In this document: positions 7,889-31,184 of the stretch, piece after piece
How the letters are laid out: each line of letters opens with the position of its first letter
How positions within the stretch are numbered: position 1 is the stretch's first letter
IMG/VR virus record: IMGVR_UViG_3300021295_000001
Origin: a virus
Lineage: Duplodnaviria; Caudoviricetes
Strand: one strand, 5' to 3'
DNA: 64,000 nucleotides
Notes under the pieces: generated by a model
What the model was told of the DNA's origin: nothing
What the model saw: the letters and a program-made list of their open reading frames with translations, nothing else
Databases searched by the model: none
Program-made: the position numbers and the translations under genes

Positions 7889-9421
7889 ATGACGAACGAG
7901 ACCATAATGGAGACTCTGAAGGTACAGCCCCTTTCCGAGGAGGAAAAGCAGGCCCGCCACATCCTGAAAAGGCTGACTGGGCCCATCGCGTCCTGCAAGG
8001 AAGGCACGAGGAACGGCAGGAAGTACAACCGCGAACTCTGGGAGAAGGCGCTCAACGACGACATCTTCAAGGAGAAGATTGACACGAAGAGCCTGTTCCT
8101 GGAACTCGGCCACCCCGACAGGGACGAGACCGACATGAACTGCGCCTGCGCGTGCATCCCCGAGATGCCCAAGATAATCGACGGCGACCTATACGCGGTG
8201 GTCGACGTACTGGACACCCCAGTCGGAAGGTTGCTAAACACCCTAATCGACTACGGGTTCCAGCCTGGCATCAGTTCCCGTGGCACGGGTGACGTCATAG
8301 AGGGTTACGACGGCGAGTCCGAAGTCGACCCCGAGACGTTCTTCCTGGAAACGTGGGACATAGTCCAGACACCCGCCCTCAAGAAGGCCAGGCTGGCCGT
8401 CACCGAGGGTCTGGAAAAGGAGAAGGCCGACCTCAACGTCGCGTTGAGGGAAAGCCTCAAATCGTCCTCGGAGGAGGACAAGAAGATGATGACGGAGGCG
8501 CTCAGGAACGTGGGCATCGACGTCGTCGAAGAAGAGAAGGTATCAGACGCCGTCGAGGCGGAGGATATAAAGGAAAGCGAATCCGAAGGGTCCGAAAAGG
8601 AAAGCAAGGAAGCCGTGGATGACGGGACCGACGCGTTGATTAAGGGACTCCAGGAGGCGCTCAAGGCCAAAGCGGAATTGGAGGCGACCGTCAAATCGCT
8701 TCGGGAGAGCCTTGCAGTCAGCGATGCTAAGGTGGGCAAACTCGAGGAGGAGAACGGAAGGTGCAAGGGCACAATCGTGCGACTCACCAAACTGTCCGAG
8801 GGTTCCAAGGAATCGGCCAAGAGGATAGCCTCACTAGAGGAGGAACTGAAACGCAAGACCGAGAGCATCAACATGCTCACGAAGGTGACCGCCGAAAGCA
8901 AGGCAAGGATGGACGACGAGAACCGTTCCCTGCGCGAATCCGCGAAACGCGGGTCCGACGAACTCGGGAGACTGAGGAGGGAACTCAAGGAATCCAAAGA
9001 GGCCAACGAGCAGAAGGTACGCTCACTGGAGGAATCGGCGCGCAAGGCTGGCGCCAGGTCCGCGAAGGAAATAGCCGAATTGAAATCACGCCTGGACAAA
9101 TCTTCCAAACTCGCTGAGGGTTACAGGAAGATGGCGAACGACACCATGTCGAGCCTAATCTCGACCAAAGCCGTCCAGTTGGGCGTGTCCGAGAACGACA
9201 TCAGGTCGCGCCTCGGCGAATCCTACACGTTGCAGGACGTGGAGGACGTGTGCGAGTCCCTAAGCGAGTACTCGCTCAACCTCAGCAGGTTGCCTTTCCG
9301 CCTGGACGGGAACGCCACCGTAAGAATCAAGGAATCCAAGATGCCGACCGCCAAGCCGACCCCGTCGTATTACGACGACGACATCGACGAGCACTCGTTG
9401 CGCATCGCGGGCCTCGATTGA
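7889..9421 (+). CDS. prohead protease (T4 gp21-like) fused to a coiled-coil scaffold
   Basis: NGRKY, ELGHP, GISSRGTG and WDIVQTPA motifs; long E/K-rich coiled coil. Confidence 0.9.
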   Translation: MTNETIMETLKVQPLSEEEKQARHILKRLTGPIASCKEGTRNGRKYNRELWEKALNDDIFKEKIDTKSLFLELGHPDRDETDMNCACACIPEMPKIIDGDLYAVVDVLDTPVGRLLNTLIDYGFQPGISSRGTGDVIEGYDGESEVDPETFFLETWDIVQTPALKKARLAVTEGLEKEKADLNVALRESLKSSSEEDKKMMTEALRNVGIDVVEEEKVSDAVEAEDIKESESEGSEKESKEAVDDGTDALIKGLQEALKAKAELEATVKSLRESLAVSDAKVGKLEEENGRCKGTIVRLTKLSEGSKESAKRIASLEEELKRKTESINMLTKVTAESKARMDDENRSLRESAKRGSDELGRLRRELKESKEANEQKVRSLEESARKAGARSAKEIAELKSRLDKSSKLAEGYRKMANDTMSSLISTKAVQLGVSENDIRSRLGESYTLQDVEDVCESLSEYSLNLSRLPFRLDGNATVRIKESKMPTAKPTPSYYDDDIDEHSLRIAGLD

Positions 9422-9470: not shown

Positions 9471-9773
9471 GTGAAACTAAACGCCAAACAACTCACGGAA
9501 GCCTACGCCAAGCGCCTAAGCCTCACCGAGGCGGCTTACGCCAAGGCCCACAACGGCGCCACCCTTCCCGAGAACCTAAAGAACGCCACCGCTCAGTTAA
9601 TCTCCAACGCGAACACCCTCTTCAGGGAGTCCTTCGCCAACTCGACTGGAACCCAGTTGGGTGACATGGGCACCTTCAAGAAGTTCACCTTGGACATCAC
9701 CCAGGTCGCGCTCCCCAACCTCATCGCCCCCGAACTCGTCATCGTCCGTCCGATGGCCTCCCGCACTGGATTT
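9471..9773 (+). CDS. major capsid protein, exon 1
   Basis: AGGAG SD; ...LPNLIAPELVIVRPMASRTGF matches the gp23-type VQPM..PTG segment. Confidence 0.88.
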
Positions 9774-11017
9774 TAACCGAATAGAATCCCTTTTGTAGCA
9801 ATACAATAGCAAACAACCTCGTTAATTGCTGGAAAACCCGATATGGACAATCAGCAGCCAAGCCCCGTGTATCAGTAAGCGGGGAAGGTTCAACGACTAT
9901 CGAAAGCGTAATCGGCGAGAAAAACGCCGATGAGGAAGCGAGTAGAGTAGGGCTTCGGTCCGAAAGACGAGGCAACCGAATGAGGACAAACCAAGTTCGG
10001 CTGATAATATAGTCTGAGCACCATGGTAACATGGTGAGCCTGACATTACTGGTAAATGACACAATGCCACGTGGCGAGCCATAACTCGCATCCGCACATG
10101 CGTGGCGAATACATAGAACGCTTTATGGAGAGTTAAGATGAAGAGAAAACTGAAGTACTTGGATTCAAGTTGCATCGACGACATCGTGAACATGTATGAG
10201 GTCGAGCGAAAGACCCTGAGAGATTGCGGAAGGAAATACGGGCTGTCCCGACCTTCCGTGAAAAGGCTCCTCGAAGAAAACGGGACCCACATCAGGACCA
10301 ACAGCGAGTCACACAGAAAACATATCACTGACGCCGAAATCGCGGAAACCGTGGAATGGTACGAATCGGGCCACACGCTGGACGAATGCTCCGAGAAAAC
10401 GGGGCTCAAGCGAAGCACCACGTATAATATACTGAAGAACCACACGAAAACGCGAAATACTTCCGAATACACGAAGGGCAAGAGGAGGGATGAGGCCACG
10501 AGGGCCAAAATCTCCAAGTCCAAAATGGGACACCCAGTGTCGGAGAAAGTGAGGCAACGCATGAGGGACTACAACAGAAACCTCGACAAAAAGACCATCC
10601 AGATAAAACTCACGAAGGCATGGTTGACCAAGAAACTCCACGGAACGTGCAACACCTCGAAACCTGAGGAGGAACTGTACCAAAGGTTGCTAAAGGAAAA
10701 CGTCAACAAGACGATACTGAGGCAATACAAGGACAGCGAAAGATACCCGTTCTACTGCGACTTCTACATAGTGGAAGACGACAAATTCATCGAACTCAAC
10801 GCGCATTGGTCGCACGGCGGAAAGCCCTACGACGAAAACGACGAGGAGTGCCAAAAGAAACTGGCGCTGTGGCGAGAGAAGGCCAAGACCTCGGCGTTCT
10901 ACGCGCAAGCCATAAAGGTGTGGACCGAAACGGACGTGCTCAAAGCAAAGACGGCCAAGGAACACAACCTCAACTACGAAGTCATTTACTAAGAATGCTT
11001 ACGAATAACAAAACCTG
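9774..11017 (+). mobile_element. group I intron (1244 nt) in the major capsid gene
   Basis: P1: exon GGATTT pairs with AGAATCC giving the U-G splice pair; core elements AATTGCTGGAAA, AATCAGCAGCCAAG, GTTCAACGACTA, ATATAGTCT; terminal G at 11017; splicing restores the frame TGF/IQYIQF. Confidence 0.9.
10138..10992 (+). CDS. intron-encoded homing endonuclease (HTH/NUMOD3-like repeats plus Vsr-like PD-(D/E)XK domain)
   Basis: DEATRAKISKSKMG basic repeat; SKPE...YPFYCDFY...FIELNAHWSHG. Confidence 0.8.
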   Translation: MKRKLKYLDSSCIDDIVNMYEVERKTLRDCGRKYGLSRPSVKRLLEENGTHIRTNSESHRKHITDAEIAETVEWYESGHTLDECSEKTGLKRSTTYNILKNHTKTRNTSEYTKGKRRDEATRAKISKSKMGHPVSEKVRQRMRDYNRNLDKKTIQIKLTKAWLTKKLHGTCNTSKPEEELYQRLLKENVNKTILRQYKDSERYPFYCDFYIVEDDKFIELNAHWSHGGKPYDENDEECQKKLALWREKAKTSAFYAQAIKVWTETDVLKAKTAKEHNLNYEVIY

Positions 11018-13204: not shown

Positions 13205-13228
13205 TGGGACTTATTGGGAGATGAAACC

Positions 13229-17086: not shown

Positions 17087-20000
17087 ATGGTTGACGAAAA
17101 GGATTTTTTGGCGTTCACGGAAGACGACGTAGTCGATTACGCCGAGGTTTATGATTTGGATGAGGGGTTCGGCAAAGGCCCTTCTATTTTGATGCCCGAC
17201 GGAACCGTGTACGACCTGTCCCGCGCGTTCGAAACGCATTTCGGCTTCTTCGAGGTCGTGTTCCAGGGATTGCACGATTCCATATTGGACGAATACCCTG
17301 GCGACACTGACGTCGAGTACGAAGGCTATCTGTCCTACGACCAAGAGAAGATAATGTACCGCGCCGAGGCCGAATTGGGAATCATCACCCTGAACGTCGG
17401 CCTCACGTACAAGGAGCCGAGGGCCAAGGTCGTAATCCTCAGCAAACCGACGGAAGCGCAATACGGCGCGCTCACCGATTTCCTCGATTACGTTCAGCAA
17501 AAAGGCAAGAAGTCCGTCCTTTTCTTCATGGGCGACAAAATAGATTACGTCGAGTACCAGTTCGGAGAGGACCAAGGCACCGACGAAATCATCGACAAGG
17601 TCAGGAGGTATTTCGCCACTGGCAAGATAGTCGAGGCTCAATCGGCCGACGGCATGGCGTACGACGACGTCATCAAGGCCATCGAGGGGTCTGGCTTGTT
17701 CCCGATAACCGCGGACGCGGACGAGACTGGCTTCATCCTCCCAGACGGCAGGTTCCTGAACACGGCCGACAACGAATACGGGATGCCTTGGCACATGGCG
17801 GTCGAGGATTTCCTCGGCGACAAGGGATTGGCGAACGAGAAAGCCCGCGAAAGGTCCTCCGAAAACGACTCTGGCGACGGCTCCCCCACAATCGAGGCGT
17901 TCGGCGCCATAAGGGTAAGCGACGGCGAGGAATACATATGCCTACCGCCAGTGAGGCCGACCGAGCAGGCGTTCTCCGCCCTCGAGGGATGGTTGGCGAA
18001 GATGCACGACGAGCATAGCCTGCAGAGGGTGTACGCGTGCAATTACGAAGGCAATCAGGACGCGTTCTACGACATCGTCCCTGGTGAAGAGAAGGAAATA
18101 GTCGGCAAATTGCGCAGATATTACTCTTCGAACAGATTGATTGAATCCCCCAAAACCCTTAATTTGACAGAATATTTCGAAGAAGAGGACGGCCCGTGTT
18201 TCGTGACGAACGAGGCAAAGGAATTGGCTGATTATCTTAAACGCAAGATAAACGAAGGTCACGGTTCTTACAGGATAGTGCATTTCTACGACCAAGACGT
18301 ATACGCTGTAGCGTCTAGTTACTCCATGGTGCACTACTGGCTTGATTACAACACCAGAAAACAGATGTACGTCGACGGCAACGAGTTCGGCGCTAGGTTA
18401 ATGGCCTATCCGATAGGGGCCAGCGACGACGACAACGTGGACTATTATGACTGCGAGAACAAGGTGTATGAATTCGGCGATTGTGGCATAAAGGTGGCCG
18501 TGATAGGCGACTTCCCCGAGGATTTCGAGAAGACAACGCTATGCAAAGCACTGGGTCCGATAACTAGAAAATACGAATTCGAGAAGGACGACAGCGACAA
18601 ATACGAGAGTATGCGCCTTCCTCACGCAACAGACTTGGGCAAGCCCAAGGAATCGCATGACAAGCAAAACGAACTGACCGAGGCCAAGGATGACGAACTT
18701 AAATTCAAGGATTGGTTGGACTCCGCATACGAAGCCGTCGGATATCAGTGGAGCGACCCGATGTTGGACATTTCCTATGAAATGAGGAGCGCCGATTCTT
18801 GCTTTGATGAGTTCCAAGATTACAGGCGCAGAAACAAAGGCAGGCAAACCGATTACTATTATTGGATGGGTCAAGAACCGAGTATGTTCTTCTCCTTTCT
18901 GGCAAGAAGCATAAGAAAAAAATCGAGCAAAGCCAATGTGAAAAAGGAAGCGGAGGCTGGGGCCGAGTCCGTATACGACGGGAAATTTTGGCGTGTGTAC
19001 AAAATAAACACGTACGAGGCGTCGTGCCATTATGGCAAAGGCACCACGTGGTGCATATCGGAATACGATGACGATTATTGGGACGAATATGCTGAAAAAG
19101 GCATCACATTTTATTTCCTTCTCCCTAAAGACGGGAAAAAATACATGAAGTATGCCATAGGAATCGACCGCAACGGGCATGTTCAGATGATATTCGACCA
19201 AGAGGATTGCAATGTTGAAGGAGTGCCGAACGTACCAGACATACCCGAATTGAGAGAAGTTAGAGATGCCATGGGCTTGGATTTCCATGTGTATTTCAAC
19301 ATGGACGAAGAATTCAGCACATATGACAACTTCAGGGACGCATGGTACGCTGGCGTGAACTGGCCCGAGATGCTATGGTTCCTTTCCGAGGACGAGGAAG
19401 AAATAAAGCGCATAATGCATGACGACCTACGTATGGACGATGTGGAGGTTGTCGAATCCCTAACCGAGGCCAAAGCGGACGTCGATAAGTTCAAGGCTTG
19501 GCTCGCCGACGGGATAAGGGGAAGCAATTTCTCCGAGCCTAATGCCGATGAGGTGGCCAAAGGGTACGCCGATTTCTTCGTGGCAAACAAAAACAGACTC
19601 AAATCCCCGCAGAACGATTTCTATTATTGGATGAAGAAACCGTTCGGGGAATTCGTGTCCTTCATAAGCGACCTCAAGAGAAAGGACGACGAAAAGTCAT
19701 TGTCCAAGTCAAAGGAGGACGAAGGCTCAAAACTCGTGTACGAGGATGAGGATTGGTTTGTGTACGAGATAACCAATTACGAGGCCTCGAAGAAATATGG
19801 CGCCAATACAAAATGGTGCATTTCTGGCTCCAAGCGATGGAACAACGGGGAGAACGGAAGGAAGTTTTTCGACGAATACGCCAGCAAAGGCATCAGGTTT
19901 TTCTTCTTCATCGACAGGAAGGGTGGCAGGAAGTACGCGTTCACCGCTTATCCAGAGGCGTTGGGGGACGACGCCTACGAGATTTACAATGACATGGACG

Positions 20001-22414
20001 TTAGGGTTCCGTTCATCCCTAACGCCCCAGCCGTCGACGAATTGTTGGCCATGTACGGCAAAGACAACGCTTTCTACGGTTCCGTGCAGGACGTGAGGCT
20101 GGAACTGAAATTGGCCCTTGCGGAAGGCAATTACAGCCCAAGCACCCTAAAATGGATTGTCGACGATTATCAATTGAATTACGGAGGAGAGGAAGAGTTC
20201 CTCATCGCCACCGACAAATACCAATTGGTAAACGAATTGGATTGGCTTATACCCGATGAGTATTTGGAGTGGGAGCGTTCCTATGAAGAGGCTGAGGCTT
20301 CCCACAAAGACGACGGCGATGACTCAAATTCCTACTCGGCGTACTGGGACGGCGATTTCTGTCAGATAAGCAACTGGGACGAAATCCCTGGTTGGAGAAA
20401 CGGAAAGGAATACGTAACGGACCCCGCGCATTGGAAGGACGGCATGTACCTATTGTCCCCAACTGGGTACGATGGATTGGAACTTACGATTGAGCCCACG
20501 GACGTCAAGGACGCGGTCATGGTGATATCGTCGTATTACGGACCTGATTTTTTGGCCGACGTTTCACTTGACCTGATGGATGCCGTGAGAAGCGGGGAGT
20601 ATGACGCCAAAAAAGTTGCCGAGGACCTAGGAATGTCCAAGGAAGCGACGGATGCGCTCATAAAATACTCAAAAGAAAAGCACGAGGGTTTGGAACTCAC
20701 CGAAGCAAAGGCGGACCAAGACGCCTTCGTCGACAAATTCGGTCAGGACCTTTTCGACCTGTTCCAGAAATCCAAGGACAGGCTAAAGAACGCCAAGGTC
20801 TCAACCGACATGACTTGGCACGTTAAGAACACGGACCCCAAGGACATGAGGCAGATGCTATACAACCTACGCTCCAAGTCTGTGAAGACTGACGGGGAAG
20901 GCAAGGCGGACCTCACCAAGATACCAGGGAAATACAAATACCTTGGCTCAAAGGGCGGTTATGACGTATACGAGCCTTTGGACGTGGATGCATCCATGGC
21001 GCTCGGCGTGGGCTCTGGTTGGTGCACCACTGGAAGGTACGGGCACGCTGGGGACCTCAATTTCAAACCGTCGCGCGAAGACGCCGAGGAGCATTGGGAC
21101 GAGTATGAGGAAAAGGGGATAAGTTTATTCTACTTCCTGCGAGACGGCGTGGCGAAATACGCGATTGCACTTCACCCAATTACGTATGAAATAAACCAAT
21201 GGATAGGGAAAGATTATCTTCGCAAAACCAACGTCGAGGTATTCAATCAGAATGACGAACAAGATTATGATGCCCTGAAATACCTGCCTTTGGACATCCT
21301 CGACGACGACATCGTTTTCGATGTGGACGAGCACGAGGATGGCTTGGCTTTGTCCGAGGATGGAAGGACCGTGCTACAGGCTAACGAAAACGTCGTCTCC
21401 GTGACCATCCCCGAGGGCGTCACCTCCATCGACGACTATGCCTTCTCTCATTGCTCCTATCTGACATCGGTAGTCATCCCTTCTTCCGTCGCATCTATTG
21501 GTGAGTCGGCATTCCTAGGTTGCTCATCCCTCGCCTCGATTGTCATTCCCTCATCCGTCACTTCCATCGGCGAAGAAGCCTTCGCGGACTGTTCATCTCT
21601 CATCTTGATTACCATCCCCTCATCGGTAACCTCCATCGGGGATTACGCCTTCGAAGGATGCCTCTCCCTTAAATCTGTGACCATCGGAAACAGGTCTTGC
21701 GAAATAGGGGAAAGTGCATTCCCCCAAAAAACGAAGATAATATACGCTGAAACAGAGTCGCTAAAGGAATCTCACGAAACGGTGTGCTACGTCCTTCCCG
21801 ACGGAAGCACCATGCACGGAACCGACCATTTCCTAATGGATTTGGAAATCGGCGACGTGGACGACGAAATGCAAAGCGAGACCGCCAAGTCGTTCGTGAG
21901 GGTGAGGCTCAATTCGTACATCAACTCCCTCACGTTCCCATCGCATGGAATCACCGACGCGCAGGAGGCCAAGGTGAGGGAACTCCTCAATGGGGCGGAC
22001 TTGGAAGGTAAGACAATAGAGGCAAACACATACGATGGCAAATGGTATCCGAGGATGAAGGCCACTGACGAAGTGGCCGACCAAGTCCTGAACTCATACA
22101 AGAGGCATCTGCTAGGCATAAGCGAATCCAGTCGGTCGGTTGACACAGCCAACCAAGGTGGTATAATAGTGTTACGCGAGGGAAACCACATGCAACACAC
22201 CAAAAGGGAATTACGCAAGATGATAGACTGCCTCAATGAGGCGGAACTCAACGAGAGGATTGACGAACTCAAGGCCAAGGTCCTGAGGATGGTCGAATCC
22301 GACAATTCGGACTATTCCGACGACGCGTTCATGCTCAATTACGCTAGGATGGTCCGCGCCAGGGACTACAGGCCCGAAACGCTAAAGGACGGGAGTTGGA
22401 TGTATGGAGAATGA
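17087..22414 (+). CDS. 1775-aa modular (polyvalent-like) protein: 3 LPDG modules, 3 WC(I/T) modules, BspA-type LRRs
   Basis: Internal repeats visible in the translation; modules delimited by IVEA, LIES/LTEY, LTEAK x3, LKES, ISES. Confidence 0.85.
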   Translation: MVDEKDFLAFTEDDVVDYAEVYDLDEGFGKGPSILMPDGTVYDLSRAFETHFGFFEVVFQGLHDSILDEYPGDTDVEYEGYLSYDQEKIMYRAEAELGIITLNVGLTYKEPRAKVVILSKPTEAQYGALTDFLDYVQQKGKKSVLFFMGDKIDYVEYQFGEDQGTDEIIDKVRRYFATGKIVEAQSADGMAYDDVIKAIEGSGLFPITADADETGFILPDGRFLNTADNEYGMPWHMAVEDFLGDKGLANEKARERSSENDSGDGSPTIEAFGAIRVSDGEEYICLPPVRPTEQAFSALEGWLAKMHDEHSLQRVYACNYEGNQDAFYDIVPGEEKEIVGKLRRYYSSNRLIESPKTLNLTEYFEEEDGPCFVTNEAKELADYLKRKINEGHGSYRIVHFYDQDVYAVASSYSMVHYWLDYNTRKQMYVDGNEFGARLMAYPIGASDDDNVDYYDCENKVYEFGDCGIKVAVIGDFPEDFEKTTLCKALGPITRKYEFEKDDSDKYESMRLPHATDLGKPKESHDKQNELTEAKDDELKFKDWLDSAYEAVGYQWSDPMLDISYEMRSADSCFDEFQDYRRRNKGRQTDYYYWMGQEPSMFFSFLARSIRKKSSKANVKKEAEAGAESVYDGKFWRVYKINTYEASCHYGKGTTWCISEYDDDYWDEYAEKGITFYFLLPKDGKKYMKYAIGIDRNGHVQMIFDQEDCNVEGVPNVPDIPELREVRDAMGLDFHVYFNMDEEFSTYDNFRDAWYAGVNWPEMLWFLSEDEEEIKRIMHDDLRMDDVEVVESLTEAKADVDKFKAWLADGIRGSNFSEPNADEVAKGYADFFVANKNRLKSPQNDFYYWMKKPFGEFVSFISDLKRKDDEKSLSKSKEDEGSKLVYEDEDWFVYEITNYEASKKYGANTKWCISGSKRWNNGENGRKFFDEYASKGIRFFFFIDRKGGRKYAFTAYPEALGDDAYEIYNDMDVRVPFIPNAPAVDELLAMYGKDNAFYGSVQDVRLELKLALAEGNYSPSTLKWIVDDYQLNYGGEEEFLIATDKYQLVNELDWLIPDEYLEWERSYEEAEASHKDDGDDSNSYSAYWDGDFCQISNWDEIPGWRNGKEYVTDPAHWKDGMYLLSPTGYDGLELTIEPTDVKDAVMVISSYYGPDFLADVSLDLMDAVRSGEYDAKKVAEDLGMSKEATDALIKYSKEKHEGLELTEAKADQDAFVDKFGQDLFDLFQKSKDRLKNAKVSTDMTWHVKNTDPKDMRQMLYNLRSKSVKTDGEGKADLTKIPGKYKYLGSKGGYDVYEPLDVDASMALGVGSGWCTTGRYGHAGDLNFKPSREDAEEHWDEYEEKGISLFYFLRDGVAKYAIALHPITYEINQWIGKDYLRKTNVEVFNQNDEQDYDALKYLPLDILDDDIVFDVDEHEDGLALSEDGRTVLQANENVVSVTIPEGVTSIDDYAFSHCSYLTSVVIPSSVASIGESAFLGCSSLASIVIPSSVTSIGEEAFADCSSLILITIPSSVTSIGDYAFEGCLSLKSVTIGNRSCEIGESAFPQKTKIIYAETESLKESHETVCYVLPDGSTMHGTDHFLMDLEIGDVDDEMQSETAKSFVRVRLNSYINSLTFPSHGITDAQEAKVRELLNGADLEGKTIEANTYDGKWYPRMKATDEVADQVLNSYKRHLLGISESSRSVDTANQGGIIVLREGNHMQHTKRELRKMIDCLNEAELNERIDELKAKVLRMVESDNSDYSDDAFMLNYARMVRARDYRPETLKDGSWMYGE
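21392..21724 (+). repeat. BspA/LRR_5 leucine-rich repeats (23-aa unit, 4-5 copies)
   Basis: IPSSVTSIGxxAFxxCSSL repeats. Confidence 0.9.
22140..22167 (+). promoter_or_regulatory. consensus sigma70 promoter inside the 3' end of the giant ORF
   Basis: TTGACA-16 nt-(TGG)TATAAT followed by GAGGG SD and in-frame ATG at 22190. Confidence 0.7.
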
Positions 22415-24407
22415 GATGAATAACCCCTTCCCGAAGGAATGGCAATTGTGGAAGATAGTCGTGCCCAACGAGCATAAGGACGACCCAGAGGACCCGAAGC
22501 GCAGGCCAGTCATACTGACCGAGACGTGGGTCGACGAAGGGGAGGACGACGAGAACCTCGACGAATACTACCCCAGTTTCGCCGTCGGGACCACGCAGGT
22601 CGAGCGCTACCAATACGAGCCAGACACGTTCGTTTTCGACGCCCCCGAGCAGTTGGAGGCGTACAAACTTTCCAAACCCACCATATTCAGATTCGGGAAG
22701 TCCGAGGGAAAATTCACCGAGGACCTCACTCTCAAGGATTTCATCGAGAAGGGTGAATACGTCGCCGACATCACGCCAGAGGACAAGGCCCGCATAAAGA
22801 GGTCCCTTAACAACAAGGTGGGACGCTCCACCCTTTTGCACGACGGGCTCCTGAAGGAATCCGCCGTCACCGACGATTCCATCGACTACCTTAGGGATTG
22901 GTTGCAATTGGGCAAGGAACCCCACATGAAGGGATTCGACGCCGACGCCAAGAAGGCGTTCATCGTGTTCCCGACAGGGGTGGACGTCGAGGACCTAAAG
23001 TCCAAAAGCGGAATCGGAACTTGGCTCGACGAGCACGGTTTCGATTGGAAGGCCGAGAAGACCGACTACACCTACAAAACGGTCGGGTCCTTCAACACGA
23101 GGACCATGAGCAAATCTGGCGCTGGTCGCGACAGGACGCTCAAGGACAGGGTCAGGCTCGACGTATCTTGGGGCGACGACGGCCTCAACGAGGACATCGA
23201 GGTCCACGACGAACTCAATCCGAAACTCTTCGACGGGGACGAACTCAAACCAGAGGTCAAGGAAGCCGTCAGGAACATCGCCGACGCGTTCATGGAAGGG
23301 TTGGCCGAGGATGGCATAAAGTTCAACCTCAAGGACATCGTCCTCATCGGCTCCAACGTGAACTACAACTACAACAAGGACAGCGATTTGGACATCCACC
23401 TAATCGCCGATTCGTCTGGATTGGAATGCCCAGACGAACTGTACCCGCTCCTATATTCCGCCTACCGTAGCATCTTCAACAAGAACTACGAGATAACCAT
23501 CAAGGGAATCCCCGCCGAGATTTACGTGGAGATGGACGAACCGCAGGGAAGGTCCAACGGCGTATACTCAATCAACGACGGTTGGGTCAAGAAGCCCGAG
23601 CGCAGGGAAATCCCCGAAATAGACATGGAGGCATTCGAAAAACTCTTCTCCGAGTGGGAGGACAGGTACTTCGAGGTCAAGAAGGAGGCCGAGGAGGAAC
23701 TCGCTTCGCGCGAGCATCCGCTCGACGAGTCCTTGATAACCGAGGGAACAACGTCGGCCGACGTCTACGACTTCGTGGAGGACGTATACGACCTGCGTAA
23801 GGAATCCATCGCCAAGGACGGCGAGTTCGGATTGGGCAACCTCGTTTTCAAGCAGATGCGCGCCCTCGGTTACCTCGACGAACTGAAGGAACTTATAAGG
23901 CAACTTAAGTCGAAGGAACTGTCGCTAGAGAACCTAAGCGAATCGGCCGAGGGGAAATCCGAAGTCGAGGAACTGTTCTGGAACATCAGGGACGAGGACG
24001 ACAAGGTAGCGGTCGCAATCCTCGACAAGCACAACGGGAAGAACATAATGTACGACGCGAAGAAGGACAAGATAGTGCCCGTTCCCAAATCCAAAACCAA
24101 GAACCGCTTCGCCGTCACAAGGGAGCAACTGAGGGACGGCGTGTTGGCCTCAGAGGAGGAGATGCGCTCGTTCATGAAGGAAGTCGGAGGCGACGAAATC
24201 GTGTTCTACGCCGACAGGGACAACCTTTGGGGCGGTGAGTACAGCGTCATAACCAAAGACGAGGAAAAGGCCCGCAAAGCCTGCGCGAAATACAATCAGG
24301 ACGGATACGCCGTCTTCAATTCGAAGGGCGATTACGAGATGTCCCGCGACAGAAACGGCGAGAGAATCAGGGAGAAACCAGTTGACAAAGCCTCCGAACC
24401 CGAGTAA
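22404..24407 (+). CDS. multidomain protein with a Pol-beta-superfamily nucleotidyltransferase domain and a possible PemK-like N-terminus
   Basis: LIGSNVNYNY..DSDLDIH (GS...DxD) motif; KRRPVIL in the N-terminus; LKES, LNED, ESLITEG, LSES linkers. Confidence 0.75.
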   Translation: MENEMNNPFPKEWQLWKIVVPNEHKDDPEDPKRRPVILTETWVDEGEDDENLDEYYPSFAVGTTQVERYQYEPDTFVFDAPEQLEAYKLSKPTIFRFGKSEGKFTEDLTLKDFIEKGEYVADITPEDKARIKRSLNNKVGRSTLLHDGLLKESAVTDDSIDYLRDWLQLGKEPHMKGFDADAKKAFIVFPTGVDVEDLKSKSGIGTWLDEHGFDWKAEKTDYTYKTVGSFNTRTMSKSGAGRDRTLKDRVRLDVSWGDDGLNEDIEVHDELNPKLFDGDELKPEVKEAVRNIADAFMEGLAEDGIKFNLKDIVLIGSNVNYNYNKDSDLDIHLIADSSGLECPDELYPLLYSAYRSIFNKNYEITIKGIPAEIYVEMDEPQGRSNGVYSINDGWVKKPERREIPEIDMEAFEKLFSEWEDRYFEVKKEAEEELASREHPLDESLITEGTTSADVYDFVEDVYDLRKESIAKDGEFGLGNLVFKQMRALGYLDELKELIRQLKSKELSLENLSESAEGKSEVEELFWNIRDEDDKVAVAILDKHNGKNIMYDAKKDKIVPVPKSKTKNRFAVTREQLRDGVLASEEEMRSFMKEVGGDEIVFYADRDNLWGGEYSVITKDEEKARKACAKYNQDGYAVFNSKGDYEMSRDRNGERIREKPVDKASEPE

Positions 24408-24433
24408 TATATAAGGGCATGGAGGAAAAACCA

Positions 24434-24748
24434 ATGGCAAAAGAAGAATTCGACGCAATCAACAACTCGCAATACAAGGAAGCAATCGCCAAGTACTTCG
24501 ATTACTCGTTCGACTTCGCCTTCCTGGACATCGTCGCCAGAATCATCGACAGGGTCGAGGACTTCTCAGACACCGAGGAAATCTACGAGGCGATGGACTC
24601 CGCGCTAATCTACACCGAGGACCAGTGGAGGGTCATGATGCATTATCAAACCCCGAGCGAGGCCGACTTCGGGACCGCCTGCGAATACCTTCTGTCTGAC
24701 GTGGAGGCCATCTGCGAGCACATCGCGGAAGCCTCCGACGAGGCCTGA
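24434..24748 (+). CDS. small acidic protein, possible Ocr-like DNA mimic
   Basis: TTGACA promoter at 24382, GGAGG SD; about a quarter of residues D/E; IYEAMDSALIYTEDQWRVM pattern. Confidence 0.6.
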   Translation: MAKEEFDAINNSQYKEAIAKYFDYSFDFAFLDIVARIIDRVEDFSDTEEIYEAMDSALIYTEDQWRVMMHYQTPSEADFGTACEYLLSDVEAICEHIAEASDEA

Positions 24749-24794
24749 TTCACGAAACCGCAAAAACGCGCGAATCGTAATGCTAAATTATAAG

Positions 24795-26025
24795 CCCCGC
24801 CCAAAAGGCGTGAAAACGGCGCCCCGCACCCAGTGTTCGGGAACGCAGTATAATAAGGGTGTCCGACGCGGATTCGTCCGCCTCGGGTCCGATTCGGATT
24901 CGTCCGATTCGGGACTGACGATGACCCAACGTCGTTAACCAGGGTCGTGACGGCGGAACCCCATCAACGGGGTCCGCACGTCGAACTGAGCGGTGCATCG
25001 CTCGAAGCGGGTCGGCCCGCGAACAAACTTGCACACCCCATCGGGAGGGTCGACTCCTTCCGTATGAACGCGGGGATATGACGGGACCCCGTAGGCGCGG
25101 TCAAAACCGCGGTTCCCAGACGGCTTCGTCTGGGAGGGGAAGGAAAACCCCGAAAACCAAAGCGCCGAGCGATAACCACGTTAGAGCCGTGGGCTCTCCG
25201 CATCCAGATACGGTACGGGGAGCGCTGGTTGTAGCGCGTCTCGGCACTCACGACCGCCACGTCGTTAAACTGCCAACGGTGGCTTCGGGTTCGATTCCCG
25301 AACCGTCCTGATAGACAATATCTGGGCGGTGAAGTATGGGCAGGTTGCCACAGTCCACCGTTAAACGTCTTGGAGGCGAGACGTTAAATCCCTTCCCGAG
25401 CAGCAAGGCACTCGTTAAAAGAGTCTTTCAGTACAGCGTGGGCAGGAGTTAGTCCCGTTCCTTATAACCGTGGAACGCACGAAAGAGGTCGCCAACATCG
25501 GCGACCGCAAGTAATGGTCGGCAATGATTCGCCGATGGGCAAAACACCCTTAATGTGCCCTCACCCTTTAACGGAACATGGATAGGCTCGGGAGGACCCG
25601 CGCGGGGCCATTGAAGGACCTTCTGGTTGAAAGGCGGACGGACCGCGCAATTAAGGTGGGTTTTCGGGAGAATAGGAACCAGCGAGAACATCCCGACGTC
25701 CTAATGTGTCAGACCAACGCGGTGCACCGCTAACCTGACCGCATTGGGACGTTAAACATCCTAACGCGACGCCCAGCAATGGGCTATGCCAAGGGACCGC
25801 ATCGCGGTGGGTATGGCCACGACGCACCGACGGACCCCGTATTCGGGGACCGACTCGGCAGTCATAATGTGTGGCCCTTGGCCCACCCAATGGCGCACGC
25901 GGTTCGGCGAGTCGCGATTCTGGGAAACGTGCGCCACAACGGTTGCTCCCCCGTGGCAGTCAACCGACAGACGGGTCCACAAAAACCCTTCGAAGGTAAG
26001 CGCCCAAAAGGCGCTTTTCCTTTTG
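24795..26025 (+). ncRNA. candidate giant structured non-coding RNA (about 1.2 kb)
   Basis: No phage-like ORF; TGCTAAATT at 24781 and terminator at 25998-26025; dense hairpins, UUCG loops, a T-arm, 5 copies of CGTTAAA. Confidence 0.7.
25998..26025 (+). terminator. intrinsic terminator
   Basis: AAGCGCC-CAAAA-GGCGCTTTTCCTTTT. Confidence 0.75.
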
Positions 26026-26070
26026 TTTGGTGCTAAATTCACTGATATTGCCCTAGGGTTATTGTTCAGC

Positions 26071-26781
26071 ATGGATTTGAAGGATTACATCTCAAACATA
26101 AAACTCGAATTGACTGGCGGTTTGCTTGAGTTGGAGATTGACGACGAAGTGATAGCGAAGGTCGTCAACCAATCGCTCAGGGAGGTCCAAAGGTACATAG
26201 ACGAATCCAGGTTCATAGAGGTACCTTTCGCCAGTTGCATCGACATCGCTGGGTTCAAATGCTCGGCGATAAAGAAGGTGTACAGGGTAAGCCCCATAGG
26301 GGGCGCGGTGTCTGGCTCGTCCAGCGCCATAGACCCGATGTACGCGCAGACGTGGGCCCTGTACGGGATAAACAACGCGACGTACAACATAACGCAATTC
26401 GCCTACAACTACGCGTCGTACAACACCGTCCTCCAAATAAGGAACTCCCTGTCGACAGACCTGGCGTTCAGGATGGACAAGCAGGGTGAGAAACTGTACG
26501 TCAACGTATCTGGCAACTACCCCGAGAGAATCGTGATTGAGTACATCCCCATATTCGAGGACGTTTCCGAGGTCAAGGACGCCTATTGGATTGACATACT
26601 CCAGAGGCTGTCCCTCGCCATGACGAAGAGGATTCTGGGCAGGGTCAGGACCAGGTTCACCCAATCCAACGCCCTTTGGCAACAGGACGGCGAGACCATG
26701 CTCGAGGAGGGCAACAGGGAACTGTCCGAGATAAGGGAGATACTGAGGACCAATTCCTCGTTGTTCTACCCGATAGATTGA
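26071..26781 (+). CDS. neck/head-tail adaptor protein (T4 gp13-like)
   Basis: IKLELTG...ELEIDD; WIDILQRLSLAMTKRILGRVR..F...DGETMLEEG pattern; position. Confidence 0.75.
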   Translation: MDLKDYISNIKLELTGGLLELEIDDEVIAKVVNQSLREVQRYIDESRFIEVPFASCIDIAGFKCSAIKKVYRVSPIGGAVSGSSSAIDPMYAQTWALYGINNATYNITQFAYNYASYNTVLQIRNSLSTDLAFRMDKQGEKLYVNVSGNYPERIVIEYIPIFEDVSEVKDAYWIDILQRLSLAMTKRILGRVRTRFTQSNALWQQDGETMLEEGNRELSEIREILRTNSSLFYPID

Positions 26782-26820
26782 CGCGATATAATAATAAATA
26801 ATAATAAAAGGAGTCGCAAA

Positions 26821-29466
26821 ATGGCCGAAAAAAGCAGACTGGAGATGTTAGCCTCCAAACTAAACAGGAAACGCGAGGAACTAAACCGCGCTGGTTTTCA
26901 CGTCGAAGGGACAAGCGACATGGACGTCACGTCGAATTTCAACGACGTGATGCCGTTCGTGGCGGTTTACGAGAGCACGGTGATGTCGGAGTTCCCAGAA
27001 CTCGGCTCCATCGACGAGGCCCTATGCGGACACGACCTCTTCACCGAAATGACCGAGAACGGCCTTGATGACAAGACCGCGATAGAATTCATCACGGAGA
27101 CGATTGGGAAGGCGCTTGGGTCGGACGAAGACGACGAAGAACACGTTGGCGAATCCTCGCTGACGGAGGGTGCTTCCAACTTCCACGGGGACGGTGGCGC
27201 CGAATGGTTGCCTTTATTGGTCTTCATGTCTGACGAAGAGGTATGGGACAAAATCAAATACTATGCCGAGCAGGAATACGTCGGCCACGAGGATGAGCAG
27301 GATTGGGACGAGTTCCTCCAGGAATTCGCCGACGAGCACTACGACGAATACTCGCAAGGCGTCTGCGTCTTGGACGACGACGAGATTAAGGCCCTCGAGG
27401 AGAAGATTGACGAGTTCAACTACGAAATTCACAGGCAAGGCGAGTCCATCACTGGTACCGAGGAATACGACGACGGCGACATACTGAAGAACTCCGAGAC
27501 CGAGATTAAGGGCGGTTATTACGAGGGCTATCAGATTTTCACCGAGTTCCAGTACAAGGACGACGAGAACCTATCCGAGGAACTCAGGAAGCCGTTCCAG
27601 GATTTCTACGCGGAAATCAAAAAGGAATTCGGTTTGACCGAACTTTCCGTCGCCTACAAGGCGTCCAACGGGGAGACTGGCTACAGAATCGTCGAGGAGG
27701 CCCGCGACGAAGCCAAGCGCAACCACAGACTCGGAGAATGCGACAAAGTCAAGGAATCCGTGAGTTGGTCCTATTTCGACAAATTCGACCCCATATTCGA
27801 CCAATACCTTCCCGATTACGGGGAGGGCGACGACATGGCCACCCAAGCGGTGACCGCCGTGTGCAAACTCGTTTACAAGTGGTACAACGACGGCGACGTT
27901 TTCGACAACGTCATGCAGAGGTCCATCGTCGGGTTCGGCAACGACCTGGCGTCATACGCGAACTGGCTTTACCACAACGTCCCCGAGACCAGGAAAATCC
28001 TCACGGGAATCAAAAAGGTTAGGAAGGACGGGGATTACGAGGACCTACTCCAAAAATTGGCCGACGCCGTTTTGGACGCCGAAAAACTCGATGGCCTCAG
28101 CCAAAGGAAAAAGGAAGGCTCCGTGTACGAAGGCGACTTCCCGTTCTCATACGAGTTCCGTAGCGAAAGCGAATACGACGAATCTCTTCACGAAGACGAT
28201 GACGAAATCGAGGAAGACGATGAACCTTGGGTTGGATATAAGATTTCCACACCAGATTTTCCAGATTCGGAAGATGTGTATTTCGACGATTTAGAAGAAG
28301 CGAAAAAGGCATTTGATAAACTCATCGACGAAGGAACAAAGCAAGTAAGACTGTATGCAGTTCAGGAGGCGGAATTTTCATATGGCGAGGACATCGAGGA
28401 ATTGTTGTTCTCTTATGACGACGATGACGAAGACGAATCCATCAAGGAGTCCAGTAAGGACTACTACGAATACCCCGCTGGCTCTGGTTGCCACGTAAGG
28501 GAGACCGAATCCAAATTCGTCGCCATAGGCAAAAACGGGGAGACAATCGGCGAATCCGACACCAAGGCTGGAGCCGAGGCCCTAATCGACGCCCAATGCA
28601 AGGAATGCGTTAATGAGGACACCGTGAAGCAGGGTGGCCACTGGGTCAACAAAGGCAAGGAAGGCACCCACGGAAAGTTCAGGACCAAGAAGCAGGCCGA
28701 CGCCCAGCGCAAGGCCATGTTCGCCAACGGATACAAGGAATCCACTGACCTTGGGGAAGGTGTTAAATACCACGATTTCTTGGACGATAAGGAAAAGATG
28801 AGGGATTTCAAAAAACTATCAAAGAGTGATTTCCTTAAATCGTATTCCTATCTGACGGAACTTGAATACGACCTTACCGCTAAAGCGCTTAAAGACAAAA
28901 ATAAAGCCAACGAATCCGCCGACTTGGGAGAATCCAAGAATAGCGATAACCCGTATCTTAAGAACACCCGCATCAAACTCGGCAAAGGCGAGCACGTCAA
29001 CAAAAACGCTGGCGACCCAGTCAAGAACATGCAGGCCTTCAACCACGCCATGGGCGAAGGAATCGACGCCGAAGCCGAACCAGAAGGCGAGTGCGACCAC
29101 GATTGCGAGGCTTCCATGCTCTCCAACGAGTTCAGCAAAAACGTCAAGGACGAATGGGACGCCATCGAGGGATACAACATCCTCAAAACGGAGATAGAGG
29201 CGTCGAGCCTCACCGACGAGGAGAAGGCCAAACTGGTCGCCATCGTCGACGACATCCGCGGTGAGGAATACAGGCACGTTGGCCAATTGGAGACCGCCGT
29301 CAAGACGGTCGCCCCGCAGGCCGACGACATAGAGAAGGGCAAGGAGGAGGCCGACGGGCAGGAAGCGTCCGCCGAGCATCACGAAGAGCCCGAGGAACAC
29401 GCTGAGGAAATCGCCTCCGAAGAGGAGGAGACCATCGTGGAGCCCAAGGAGGGAGAAGGCGAATAG
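26821..29466 (+). CDS. 881-aa acidic modular protein with a C-terminal ferritin-like helix pair
   Basis: AAGGAG SD; many ES.L.E linkers; DEWDAIEGY...DIRGEEYRHVGQL. Confidence 0.8.
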   Translation: MAEKSRLEMLASKLNRKREELNRAGFHVEGTSDMDVTSNFNDVMPFVAVYESTVMSEFPELGSIDEALCGHDLFTEMTENGLDDKTAIEFITETIGKALGSDEDDEEHVGESSLTEGASNFHGDGGAEWLPLLVFMSDEEVWDKIKYYAEQEYVGHEDEQDWDEFLQEFADEHYDEYSQGVCVLDDDEIKALEEKIDEFNYEIHRQGESITGTEEYDDGDILKNSETEIKGGYYEGYQIFTEFQYKDDENLSEELRKPFQDFYAEIKKEFGLTELSVAYKASNGETGYRIVEEARDEAKRNHRLGECDKVKESVSWSYFDKFDPIFDQYLPDYGEGDDMATQAVTAVCKLVYKWYNDGDVFDNVMQRSIVGFGNDLASYANWLYHNVPETRKILTGIKKVRKDGDYEDLLQKLADAVLDAEKLDGLSQRKKEGSVYEGDFPFSYEFRSESEYDESLHEDDDEIEEDDEPWVGYKISTPDFPDSEDVYFDDLEEAKKAFDKLIDEGTKQVRLYAVQEAEFSYGEDIEELLFSYDDDDEDESIKESSKDYYEYPAGSGCHVRETESKFVAIGKNGETIGESDTKAGAEALIDAQCKECVNEDTVKQGGHWVNKGKEGTHGKFRTKKQADAQRKAMFANGYKESTDLGEGVKYHDFLDDKEKMRDFKKLSKSDFLKSYSYLTELEYDLTAKALKDKNKANESADLGESKNSDNPYLKNTRIKLGKGEHVNKNAGDPVKNMQAFNHAMGEGIDAEAEPEGECDHDCEASMLSNEFSKNVKDEWDAIEGYNILKTEIEASSLTDEEKAKLVAIVDDIRGEEYRHVGQLETAVKTVAPQADDIEKGKEEADGQEASAEHHEEPEEHAEEIASEEEETIVEPKEGEGE

Positions 29467-29504
29467 CCTTCCTTTCCGCTTATAACCAAGGAGGAACGAC
29501 ATCA

Positions 29505-31184
29505 ATGTTCGGAATCAAATACGCGTTCATGCCACTCGTTCAATACGAGGACGAAGAGGAGGCCTACATAAGGTCTTTGCGCGAGGCCAAGGAAACCACG
29601 TTCGACATATCCGAGGATGGAATGTTCGACAGGGGCAACGCCTATTTCTACGCGAGGACTGGTAGCAAGGTCGATTTGGACGGCAAGGAATACACCGTCA
29701 CGACCGACGAGGAAGGCAACCACAGGATTGGCTATTCCGACACGATATACCTTAAGGACGCCGACGGCAACGTAACGACCGTGTCCAAGGCCGAGTTCAT
29801 CGAGAAGGCCACGCTCCTGAAAGAGGAGGCCAAGCCCGAGGAATACGGCGTTTGGCAGAACGTCGAGGCATCGAAGTACAAGAGCGGTGACCTCGCCGTT
29901 GGCTTCGTCGCCAAAGGCATGTCCAAGGAGGAAGCCGAGGCCAAAGCCAAGGAACTCTCCGACAAATACTGCAAATTCGGCGCTTGCACCTACGAGGTCA
30001 GGAAGGTCGACGAGTCGTTGGCCGAATCAGCCATCGTCGAGGAGCCCATCAAGTTGCTCGAACCCAAGTTCGATTCCAGGAAATCCTTCTACAAGAAAGC
30101 CAAGGTCGACGAAAGGGAAGACGGCACGAAGATACTTTGGTCGTACAACACCCCAGTCTGCAAGATAAAGGACGGGAAGGCCACGTTGCTCAAGAGGGGT
30201 TACCTCGGATGGTTCTCCTCCCCCACCACGCTCCGCCACGTGAAGGACTTCCTCCAGCAGAACGGATTCAAGATAGGTTCGAAATCGGAACTCGCCAAGA
30301 TGTACGAAACCGAACGCTACGACGAGTCGCTAATCACCGAGGCGGACGCCATGAAGGCCAACCTAGACGACGAGAAGGAGGTCGGGGAAGCCAAGGAAAT
30401 CCTGACCAAGGAACACGACGAGGAAGTGGAGCAGATAGTGGACGTCGACGCCAACACCGTCGCGGAACTCAAGGACTCCTACGTCGGTAACGTCATATTG
30501 CAATGCCCCGTGTGCAGGACGTTGCTCTACAAGAAGCCAGACGCCATCGAGAAAGCCGAGGATTCCGACATATACAACGTCGGCGAGGCCTGCCTGCATT
30601 GCGGTAGCGAGGACGGATACGGCTTGGTTGGCCAGGTCGCCGAACTGTCCGTGAAACCAGAAGTGGAGGACGACTCCACCACTGGCAAGGAAACAGATTC
30701 CCCCGACGTCGAGCCCGACAAGGAGGGCACCGAGTCCGAGGACGAGGTAGGCGTTGAGGTCGAGGAGACCGAGAAGGTCGGGGAACCCGTGGTAGAGGAA
30801 TCGCTCGCCAAGCCCGCAGAGGCCGACGAATTCGACGACGCGTCGTTCAACGCGCTGGTCACCGATTTCCTTACCGAGACTTACAACAACGTCACGGGAT
30901 TCACCGCCAACGAGGTGACGAAGGAAGGCTCGGACATAACCGTGTCTGGCTCAATCGCCTACGCGAGCGGTAAGGAACGCTCGACCGAGTTCAAACTGAA
31001 GGAGTCCGTCGAAGGCGGTTCAATCTCCTGGGAGGGTTCGAACCCGACGTTCGCTGGCGGTTCGTTCAGATTCGACGTCGTCAGCGAGGGGAACGTGGCG
31101 AAGGCCAAGGCCCTGTCCTACGAGATTGAGGCCAAGTCCGTCAACGAGTCCTACAAGGTCAAGGGGCGCATATCCCGCGCCTAA
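29505..31184 (+). CDS. 559-aa modular protein with a zinc-ribbon (CPVC/CLHC)
   Basis: AGGAGG SD; LREA, ESLAES, ESLITEA, LKES linkers. Confidence 0.8.
   Translation: MFGIKYAFMPLVQYEDEEEAYIRSLREAKETTFDISEDGMFDRGNAYFYARTGSKVDLDGKEYTVTTDEEGNHRIGYSDTIYLKDADGNVTTVSKAEFIEKATLLKEEAKPEEYGVWQNVEASKYKSGDLAVGFVAKGMSKEEAEAKAKELSDKYCKFGACTYEVRKVDESLAESAIVEEPIKLLEPKFDSRKSFYKKAKVDEREDGTKILWSYNTPVCKIKDGKATLLKRGYLGWFSSPTTLRHVKDFLQQNGFKIGSKSELAKMYETERYDESLITEADAMKANLDDEKEVGEAKEILTKEHDEEVEQIVDVDANTVAELKDSYVGNVILQCPVCRTLLYKKPDAIEKAEDSDIYNVGEACLHCGSEDGYGLVGQVAELSVKPEVEDDSTTGKETDSPDVEPDKEGTESEDEVGVEVEETEKVGEPVVEESLAKPAEADEFDDASFNALVTDFLTETYNNVTGFTANEVTKEGSDITVSGSIAYASGKERSTEFKLKESVEGGSISWEGSNPTFAGGSFRFDVVSEGNVAKAKALSYEIEAKSVNESYKVKGRISRA

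Follow-up and report, generated by a model that had tools for sequence, protein, structure and literature searches.

Four large acidic open reading frames (ORFs) in a 64,000-nucleotide (nt) stretch of viral DNA (IMG/VR record IMGVR_UViG_3300021295_000001, the whole of which is called the window below) were found to have the features of modular polyproteins, whose inter-module linkers share a motif with the substrates of the phage's own prohead protease. The four, named A, B, C and D for the ORFs starting at 17087, 22404, 26821 and 29505, are situated downstream of the Gp23-type capsid gene and ahead of the sheath and tube genes; the general site rule of the T4 prohead protease gp21 is L/I-x-E. 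The polyprotein reading is well supported in silico, by a composition-corrected enrichment of the motif that is repeated in relatives, by sites at module boundaries and joints, by modules that also exist as stand-alone proteins, and by a module fused to an S77 protease. The further claim, that A-D are prohead-protease substrates cut into about 20 folded pieces that are retained in the head, was put at a probability of roughly 55%, and the arrangement suggests that a set of ready-made proteins may be carried in the phage head. The ORFs, their modules (in residues) and the P3-P1 positions of their candidate cuts are as follows, with ↓ marking a predicted cut here and below.

17087..22414, + strand: polyprotein A, 1775 amino acids (aa); modules 1-183, 184-353, 354-532, 533-794, 795-1206, 1207-1561 (with leucine-rich repeats), 1562-1680 and 1681-1775
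17627-17635, 18137-18145, 18674-18682, 19460-19468, 20696-20704, 21761-21769 and 22118-22126, + strand: candidate cuts in A
21383..21736, + strand: BspA-type leucine-rich repeat (LRR) region within A 1207-1561 (Pfam LRR_5, 9.6e-35)
22404..24407, + strand: polyprotein B, 667 aa; modules 1-152 (PemK/MazF-like lead), 153-447 (nucleotidyltransferase (NTase) core from 261), 448-513 (C-terminal helical piece of the NTase) and 514-667
22851-22859, 23736-23744 and 23934-23942, + strand: candidate cuts in B
26821..29466, + strand: polyprotein C, 881 aa; modules 1-116, 117-312, 313-458, 459-543, 544-646, 647-704 and 705-881
27160-27168, 27748-27756, 28186-28194, 28441-28449, 28750-28758 and 28924-28932, + strand: candidate cuts in C
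27757..28194, + strand: YLP module, C 313-458, about 140 aa, signature YLPxxGEG...YNDGDV, bounded by VKE↓S and LHE↓D
29505..31184, + strand: polyprotein D, 559 aa; leader 1-27, modules 28-174 and 175-279, conserved core 280-559 (zinc (Zn) ribbon and C-terminal beta domain)
29577-29585, 30018-30026 and 30333-30341, + strand: candidate cuts in D
30027..30341, + strand: module D 175-279, homologue of a stand-alone SPO1-like (Herelleviridae) phage protein of about 93 aa (phrog_4264, 1.3e-25)

An earlier reading of the sequence, the original prediction, had pointed to these four ORFs, to twelve linker peptides within them, and to the same pattern in capsid and protease. All of these were located. 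The net charges of the ORFs range from -48 to -152, and the peptides stand at residues 529 and 1203 (ELTEAK), 790 (ESLTEAK) and 1557 (ESLKES) of A, at 442 of B (ESLITEG), at 111 (ESSLTEG), 454 (ESLHED), 539 (ESIKES), 640 (ESTDLGEG) and 698 (ESADLGES) of C, and at 170 (ESLAES) and 274 (ESLITEA) of D. QLTEA and SLTEA are present at the capsid N-terminus, and LRES, IKES and LQEA in the protease-scaffold protein.

Expected numbers of the motif were drawn from shuffles within each protein, which corrects for composition. On this basis [LI]xE[SAG] was found 31 times in A-D against 10.2 expected (z 6.4, about 3-fold), 11 times in the protease-scaffold protein against 2.4, and twice in capsid exon 1 against 0.2, while the other 44 window proteins, a control of the kind that the original prediction had proposed, held 24 against 26.7 (ratio 0.9) and showed no enrichment. 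For [LI]xE[SAGD] the count in A-D was 38 against 15.7, and an extended ES..L..E pattern, defined post hoc when the data had already been seen, occurred 10 times against 0.76; three of the motif instances are paralogous copies of one domain and hence not independent. The enrichment comes mostly from the residue after Glu, in that S, A or G follows [LI]xE in 31-60% of cases, compared with 17-23% by composition. It was observed again in eleven related contigs, where head-side ORFs held 157 sites against 61.9 expected (z 12.6) and tail-side ORFs 52 against 44.4. An artefact of composition was ruled out by the within-protein shuffles together with the unenriched 44 control proteins. A DNA-level repeat or recombination signal was ruled out as well, since the codons vary from one site to another, which argues for selection on the peptide and not on the DNA. 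An obligatory 'ES' prefix was rejected likewise: the prefix is unenriched across the clade, and many of its copies in the window supply P1-P1' of another site in tandem with the first, as VVE↓SLTE↓A shows.

The window comes from a distant T4-like myovirus and carries all of its genes on the + strand. Its gene set comprises a large terminase, a T4 Gp20-type portal, an S77 protease and a Gp23-type capsid, followed by neck, sheath, tube and baseplate genes; the nearest cultured portals, at about 30% identity, are those of Streptococcus phage vB_SagM-GXN1, Bacillus phage SP-15 and a Listeria phage, and the uncultured related genomes are 130-150 kb long. The protease and capsid features that carry the motif are the following.

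7889..9421, + strand: prohead protease S77 (T4 gp21 type) fused to a scaffold-like coiled-coil tail (Pfam Peptidase_S77, phrog_207)
9471..9776, + strand: exon 1 of the Gp23-type capsid gene, with two candidate maturation sites near the N-terminus
9492-9500, + strand: capsid candidate site QLTE↓A
9522-9530, + strand: capsid candidate site SLTE↓A

The product of the ORF at 7889, with its S77 domain encoded at 7889-8490, is presumed to be the enzyme that would cut A-D. Its residues 40-148 match Peptidase_S77 (PF03420) in Pfam at 1.9e-12, and the protein could be aligned to T4 gp21 (PDB 5JBL), with the GH and SSRG motifs of the catalytic His and Ser at matching positions. In T4, gp21 cuts after Glu inside the prohead, for example at LIE near its own N-terminus, and internal proteins targeted to the prohead are processed in this way, whereas Asp in place of Glu at P1 prevents processing (PMC9026906). 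Two attributes of T4-type substrates were found here too, namely an S77 protease with catalytic His and Ser, and [L/I]-x-E sites shared with capsid and scaffold; the second capsid site is kept as [LV][TA]E↓[SA] at capsid residues 17-20 in the window and three relatives. No peptidase family was detected in A-D by Pfam even at E up to 1, nor any HExxH or HxxEH motif, and self-processing by an embedded metallopeptidase was ruled out on the absence of both a peptidase domain and HExxH. It might still be supposed that a different protease, of host or phage, cuts the linkers, possibly only after delivery, with the gp21-type likeness a coincidence. This is very improbable, since A-D hold no embedded peptidase of their own and their motif is the one seen at the capsid and scaffold sites of this phage.

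The spacing of the sites separates A-D from the scaffold. In the tail of the protease-scaffold protein one site occurs per about 25 aa, which is like T4 gp22, and the tail fits the profile of a scaffold to be degraded: coiled-coil, non-globular, with dense sites that would yield small peptides. The sites of A-D instead lie 100-400 aa apart at domain edges, between folded modules that have stand-alone homologues, and this wide spacing fits release of folded pieces rather than degradation. It bears on a second explanation, in which A-D are parts of the prohead core or scaffold that are cut and then expelled or discarded, the modules serving assembly or head-size control with nothing functional delivered. 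The scaffold-like acidity of A-D would suit this, as would a YLP module fused to a protease at the usual position of the scaffold tail (described below), and the conserved termini of polyprotein C and the conserved core of D suggest structural roles. However, sparse sites at domain edges would leave folded pieces of 7-47 kDa unable to exit the capsid pores, and enzyme-like folds (the NTase and the PemK-like lead) are among the modules. Moreover, some modules are homologues of small phage genes that elsewhere lie away from head genes or in the terminal-repeat region, and the modules vary widely among relatives, which is unexpected for assembly parts. The core or scaffold explanation was judged unlikely.

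The prediction that A-D are strings of unrelated or repeated domains with the pattern at their boundaries agrees with homology breakpoints, paralogue edges and low-confidence linkers. In A, E(S)LTE↓AK opens each of three paralogous domains, called 'C' domains, and the P1 Glu is invariant in 7 copies from three genomes at 22-49% identity; three 'A' domains end in [LI]xE↓[AS] at residues 183, 353 and 1680, and homology to relatives breaks at 183, 530, 1204-1207 and 1541-1563. The homology end-points of B coincide with LKE↓S (152) and LSE↓S (513). Taken over all homology-boundary clusters, a site lies within 8 aa of 21 out of 35, compared with 9.7 ± 2.5 for random placement; for the strict motif, 18 of 93 end-points, which are not mutually independent, have one within 12 residues, where 6.9 were expected. 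Comparison with AlphaFold models gave a mixed result. The D model, from a 13-sequence alignment with a mean predicted local distance difference test score (pLDDT) of 65, shows folded blocks at 40-170, 197-259, 319-383 and 445-559 and low-pLDDT segments at 1-35, 174-196, 260-288 and 384-438, and the sites at 27, 174 and 279 fall inside the first three of these segments. The C model, from a two-sequence alignment with a pLDDT of 37, was used for placement of coil only, and it puts all five listed sites of C in predicted coil, which is weak evidence at that confidence.

Relatives were found to combine these modules differently, with the motif at the joints. In the closest of them, G001 (locus L001), a single ORF links the NTase core of B (261-447) with the 'C' domain and LRR of A (1204-1545), and the two meet precisely where each window protein has its motif (B447/A1204). 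The C-terminal helical piece of the NTase lies on a separate ORF there (L001 2988-5942 and 6249-7991), a split that raises the question of whether NTase pieces reassemble after processing. The 20-aa linker with ESLITE↓G in B is an insertion relative to stand-alone NTases and to the contiguous NTase of a further relative, G002, and in the closest relative its position is the joint to another module. Between C and its G001 counterpart the first 291 aa and residues 725-860 (the last 140 or so) are conserved, and the middle differs, with ESLKE at two joints. The core of D, Zn ribbon and C-terminal domain, is conserved in all relatives; the two extra N-terminal modules are present in the window and G001 and missing from the short orthologues, and other relatives carry different inserts after the Zn ribbon. 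The D 175-279 module sits at other positions in three further loci (L010, L017 and L018), preceded each time by [LV]xE↓[SAG]. The cargo zone between capsid and neck differs in size among relatives, with extremes of about 6 kb and about 22 kb.

The constancy of the D core is also what lends some colour to a third explanation, in which some or all of the ORFs, notably D or the LRR part of A, are external or neck-associated proteins displayed for adhesion. The core immediately precedes neck and tail genes, LRR domains of the BspA type typically sit at cell surfaces, and in vB_SagM-GXN1 an acidic Zn-ribbon ORF follows the neck gene, a likeness of position and composition only. Against this, the gp21-type protease works inside the prohead (T4; PMC9026906), the cleavage motif of capsid and scaffold is not expected in external proteins, and NTase and PemK-like modules make little sense outside the cell, so that external display appears distinctly unlikely. 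The vB_SagM-GXN1 ORF itself (L029 31346-32176) encodes a very acidic protein of 276 aa with a CPGCG Zn-ribbon motif, at the position that the D core has in the window; its equivalence to the D core is suggested by position and composition alone, BLAST similarity being absent.

Three modules (D 175-279, the NTase and YLP) exist elsewhere as proteins of their own. By tblastn, D 175-279 matched small ORFs in 138 phage records, the match in Bacillus phages Grass and P59 being in the annotated terminal-repeat region, and the NTase was found elsewhere as a stand-alone protein of 234 aa. The YLP module gave 1584 matches among 1.8 billion cluster representatives, and hundreds of these are stand-alone, unnamed proteins (140-160 aa, 50-60% identity) that belong to no Pfam family. 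The stand-alone proteins begin M-(S/A/V)-V-D-W, which corresponds to the residue following the predicted cut VKE↓SVSW of C, while 55 embedded copies from different clusters have [LIMV]-x-E-[SG]-V-x-W before the conserved Trp (L/I/M/V at W-6 in 62%, E at W-4 in 67%, S/G at W-3 in 67%). Most of the stand-alone copies in viral contigs do not adjoin recognisable head genes and are probably ordinary genes of those phages. A direct link of the module to the protease was seen in two metagenomic proteins, P0013 (1134 aa) and P0071 (919 aa), in which an S77 domain is followed by two or three LxE↓S sites and then by cargo that includes YLP; the sets of modules behind the protease differ, and the two are close relatives, counted as one independent fusion. 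Elsewhere an 817-aa acidic ORF with YLP immediately precedes the protease and capsid genes (L030), and a 370-aa YLP ORF sits between portal and protease (L041). In the former contig three small ORFs (L030 12607-14340; 168-212 aa) downstream of the capsid gene carry [LI]xE[SAG] at residues 9-31, early sites that are like the short leaders of T4 internal proteins.

These comparisons also bear on an alternative to processing, that A-D are uncleaved multidomain proteins which act or are packaged as whole chains, in the manner of the N4 virion RNA polymerase and many polyvalent proteins, and that [LI]xE[SAG] is a linker or helix-capping signature accompanying each domain without proteolysis. Three of the strict motifs do come from paralogues of a single domain, and the brief K-x-[LI]-x-E-S start retained by some stand-alone YLP proteins means that part of the pattern could be the domain's own; in addition, the NTase would be divided if B were cleaved. 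Yet the motif flanks unrelated domains, before or after them, it is absent in leaderless stand-alone forms, it equals the capsid and scaffold sites of the same phage, and its enrichment is confined to the head side of the genome. Whole-chain action was therefore considered rather unlikely.

What the modules are could be named for a few of the approximately 20: the NTase, the BspA-type LRR, the PemK/MazF-like lead and the homologue of a small gene of SPO1-like terminal-repeat regions. In Pfam only LRR_5 rose above threshold in A-D and NTase matches were weak, with all remaining modules unassigned; a PHROGs match (phrog_36119) covers B residues 264-508, and the PDB sequence matches of the LRR region of A are LRR proteins. 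ESM Atlas features gave leads only, a PemK/MazF-like fold for B 1-152 and viral hypothetical proteins of 240-280 aa for the 'C' domain of A. A Foldseek search of the D model against viral and PDB libraries returned an uncharacterised homologue and weak beta-barrel matches only. No match was obtained for C by tblastn against cultured phages or in PHROGs, for B and C in PDB sequence searches, or for the 'C' domain of A in a word-based homologue search. No known anti-defence protein is among the nameable modules, and an effector or anti-defence role of the modules, as in the original prediction, would be conjectural.

A number of observations weigh against cleavage into retained pieces. Most of the predicted pieces have isoelectric points of 4.2-5.4, T4 internal proteins being basic, and such acidity would be awkward beside packed DNA. 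No N-terminal capsid-targeting leader common to A-D was found: D has a leader of 27 residues that ends SLRE↓A, short D orthologues begin M-x-x-Y-L-T-E↓A-F and several D orthologues lack that Glu, and a common leader is absent among A, B and C. The predicted cut at the B linker would divide the NTase in two, some module boundaries (for example A 973-986 and D 378-398) have no site nearby, and at several orthologous joints G001 has Val at P3 or has lost the motif. The claim that motifs stand outside folded domains held for the three boundary sites of D and failed for others: IGE↓S at A 1473 and 1542 and a third site with V at P3 are inside LRR repeats, where they are probably not linkers, and several copies are inside folded parts of D. 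The C model, at pLDDT 37, is too poor to prove linker placement, and tblastn against cultured phages found no A-D ORFs in cultured relatives.

Comparison with known systems places A-D near three of them. In mechanism they would be most like T4 internal proteins and Alt, and also the ejection proteins of giant phages; in architecture they resemble polyvalent proteins. T4 IPI, IPII, IPIII and Alt share with A-D the S77 family and a type of site with Glu at P1 and a hydrophobic P3 (PMC9026906, PMC3012670). T4 internal proteins become part of the prohead core, undergo trimming by the protease and leave the head with the DNA, a route that A-D would share, and both repertoires are diverse and fast-changing (PMC9026906, PMC3012670). 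Each T4 internal protein, however, has a single domain, a gene of its own and an N-terminal leader of 7-10 residues, whereas A-D have up to eight modules per chain. In giant phages many head-internal proteins, substrates of phiKZ gp175 and SPN3US gp245, are cut after Glu at x-X-E, with redundant multiple sites and a large mass of protein delivered to the host (PMC10052503, PMC9026906). There, nearly all cuts remove N-terminal propeptides that are then degraded, and the protease is of another family with A/S at P3, whereas the sites of A-D separate folded modules, each resembling a product of its own; no sequence homology of A-D to giant-phage ejection or inner-body proteins was found.

Polyvalent proteins (Iyer et al. 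2017, PMC5512222) have many unrelated domains per chain, are encoded with packaging and head genes, are mosaic, and were proposed to be packed and injected. A-D likewise fall within the polyvalent range of two to fifteen distinct domains per chain, and are encoded alongside head and packaging genes. Processing of polyvalent proteins was proposed to occur through embedded zincin-like metallopeptidases or C-terminal assemblin-like peptidases (PMC5512222), whereas A-D have no peptidase; a prohead protease acting in trans at a defined linker motif falls outside that description (PMC5512222), and the polyvalent repertoire of ArdC-N, methylases, ADP-ribosyltransferases (ARTs), helicases and named LPD domains was not detected in A-D by Pfam. 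RNA virus polyproteins, such as picornavirus P1-P3 with the 3C protease, are also split into units at consensus sites of their own protease. This is an analogy in logic only, with no homology and another class of protease, and the cutting of A-D would take place within an assembling capsid. What would set A-D apart from all three phage systems is the combination of several folded modules per chain, sites for a trans-acting prohead protease between them, and linkers that double as joints for exchange. Full-text literature searches found no description of such a multi-module, protease-linker arrangement.

Based on these findings, a mechanism can be proposed for cleavage, packaging, head retention and injection. 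A-D would be expressed late and incorporated in the prohead core. The S77 (gp21-type) protease would then cut after Glu at [L/I/V]-x-E↓[S/A/G] in the flexible linkers between folded modules, giving about 20 pieces of 7-47 kDa and one leader peptide of 27 residues (3 kDa). The folded pieces would exceed the capsid pores and so be kept in the head, entering the host with the DNA. Each linker would be a processing site and also the joint at which modules are gained, lost or swapped between relatives.

Other features of the window were recorded alongside these. ORF A contains a perfect sigma-70 consensus promoter at 22140-22167 (TTGACA, a 16 nt spacer and a TG-extended TATAAT, 12/12 matches), placed directly after the ISE↓S site and ahead of both the final A module and ORF B; it could provide separate, possibly early, expression of that module and B. 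The Gp23-type capsid gene is interrupted, exon 1 being at 9471-9776 and exon 2 at 11105-12082, by a group I intron (Rfam RF00028, 9764-10036, 83 bits) with a helix-turn-helix (HTH)/endonuclease-like ORF inside it at 10138-10992, and the gene is unsplit, at 442-449 aa, in two relatives (G002 and G005). The large terminase (2954-5410, 818 aa) has a Hint/intein-like insert at residues 212-362 that is likely an intein, with Pfam Intein_splicing at 32.6 bits, slightly below the cut-off of 35.8, and PT-HINT weak too. A free-standing HNH-type homing endonuclease is encoded at 13214-14821 among the head genes (E 1e-50 or better to phrog_3339 and phrog_559); with the intron and the intein-like insert also present, selfish elements seem to have invaded this genome heavily. 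Between a 109-aa ORF and the neck/adaptor gene, about 1 kb (24749-25785) has no long ORF on the + strand and short minus-strand ORFs only; an Rfam scan of this 24.7-25.8 kb stretch gave no match even at E up to 1. G001 has an ORF-poor gap of similar size (L001 8645-9935), and G002 has none, the same two genes being 109 nt apart. Two related contigs, L003 and L004, have very few long ORFs under table 11 though they encode a homologue of the neck protein, and they may use another genetic code or be of poor quality.

A wider generalisation is possible, though more doubtful than cleavage in the window itself. In an uncultured T4-like clade and at least one further lineage, that with cargo on the S77 protease, the prohead protease site may serve as a general 'plug-in' linker, such that genes copied behind LxE↓S are made late, cut in the prohead and delivered ready-made; the source genes would be small stand-alone ones elsewhere, away from head genes or in the terminal-repeat region. 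YLP, a very large unannotated family of more than 1500 clusters with no Pfam or PHROG entry, may be a very common delivered factor or an adaptor that anchors cargo to the prohead core. The combination of an S77 protease with LxE↓[SAG] linkers in head-side ORFs offers a search rule for virion-delivered proteins in metagenomes, and the arrangement would be a natural design for loading multiple foreign proteins into a T4-like capsid via one gene. If cleavage and delivery do occur, a changeable set of about 20 pre-made proteins enters the cell prior to any gene expression, and this would help to account for the ability of uncultured phages to withstand host defences that act during the first minutes of infection.

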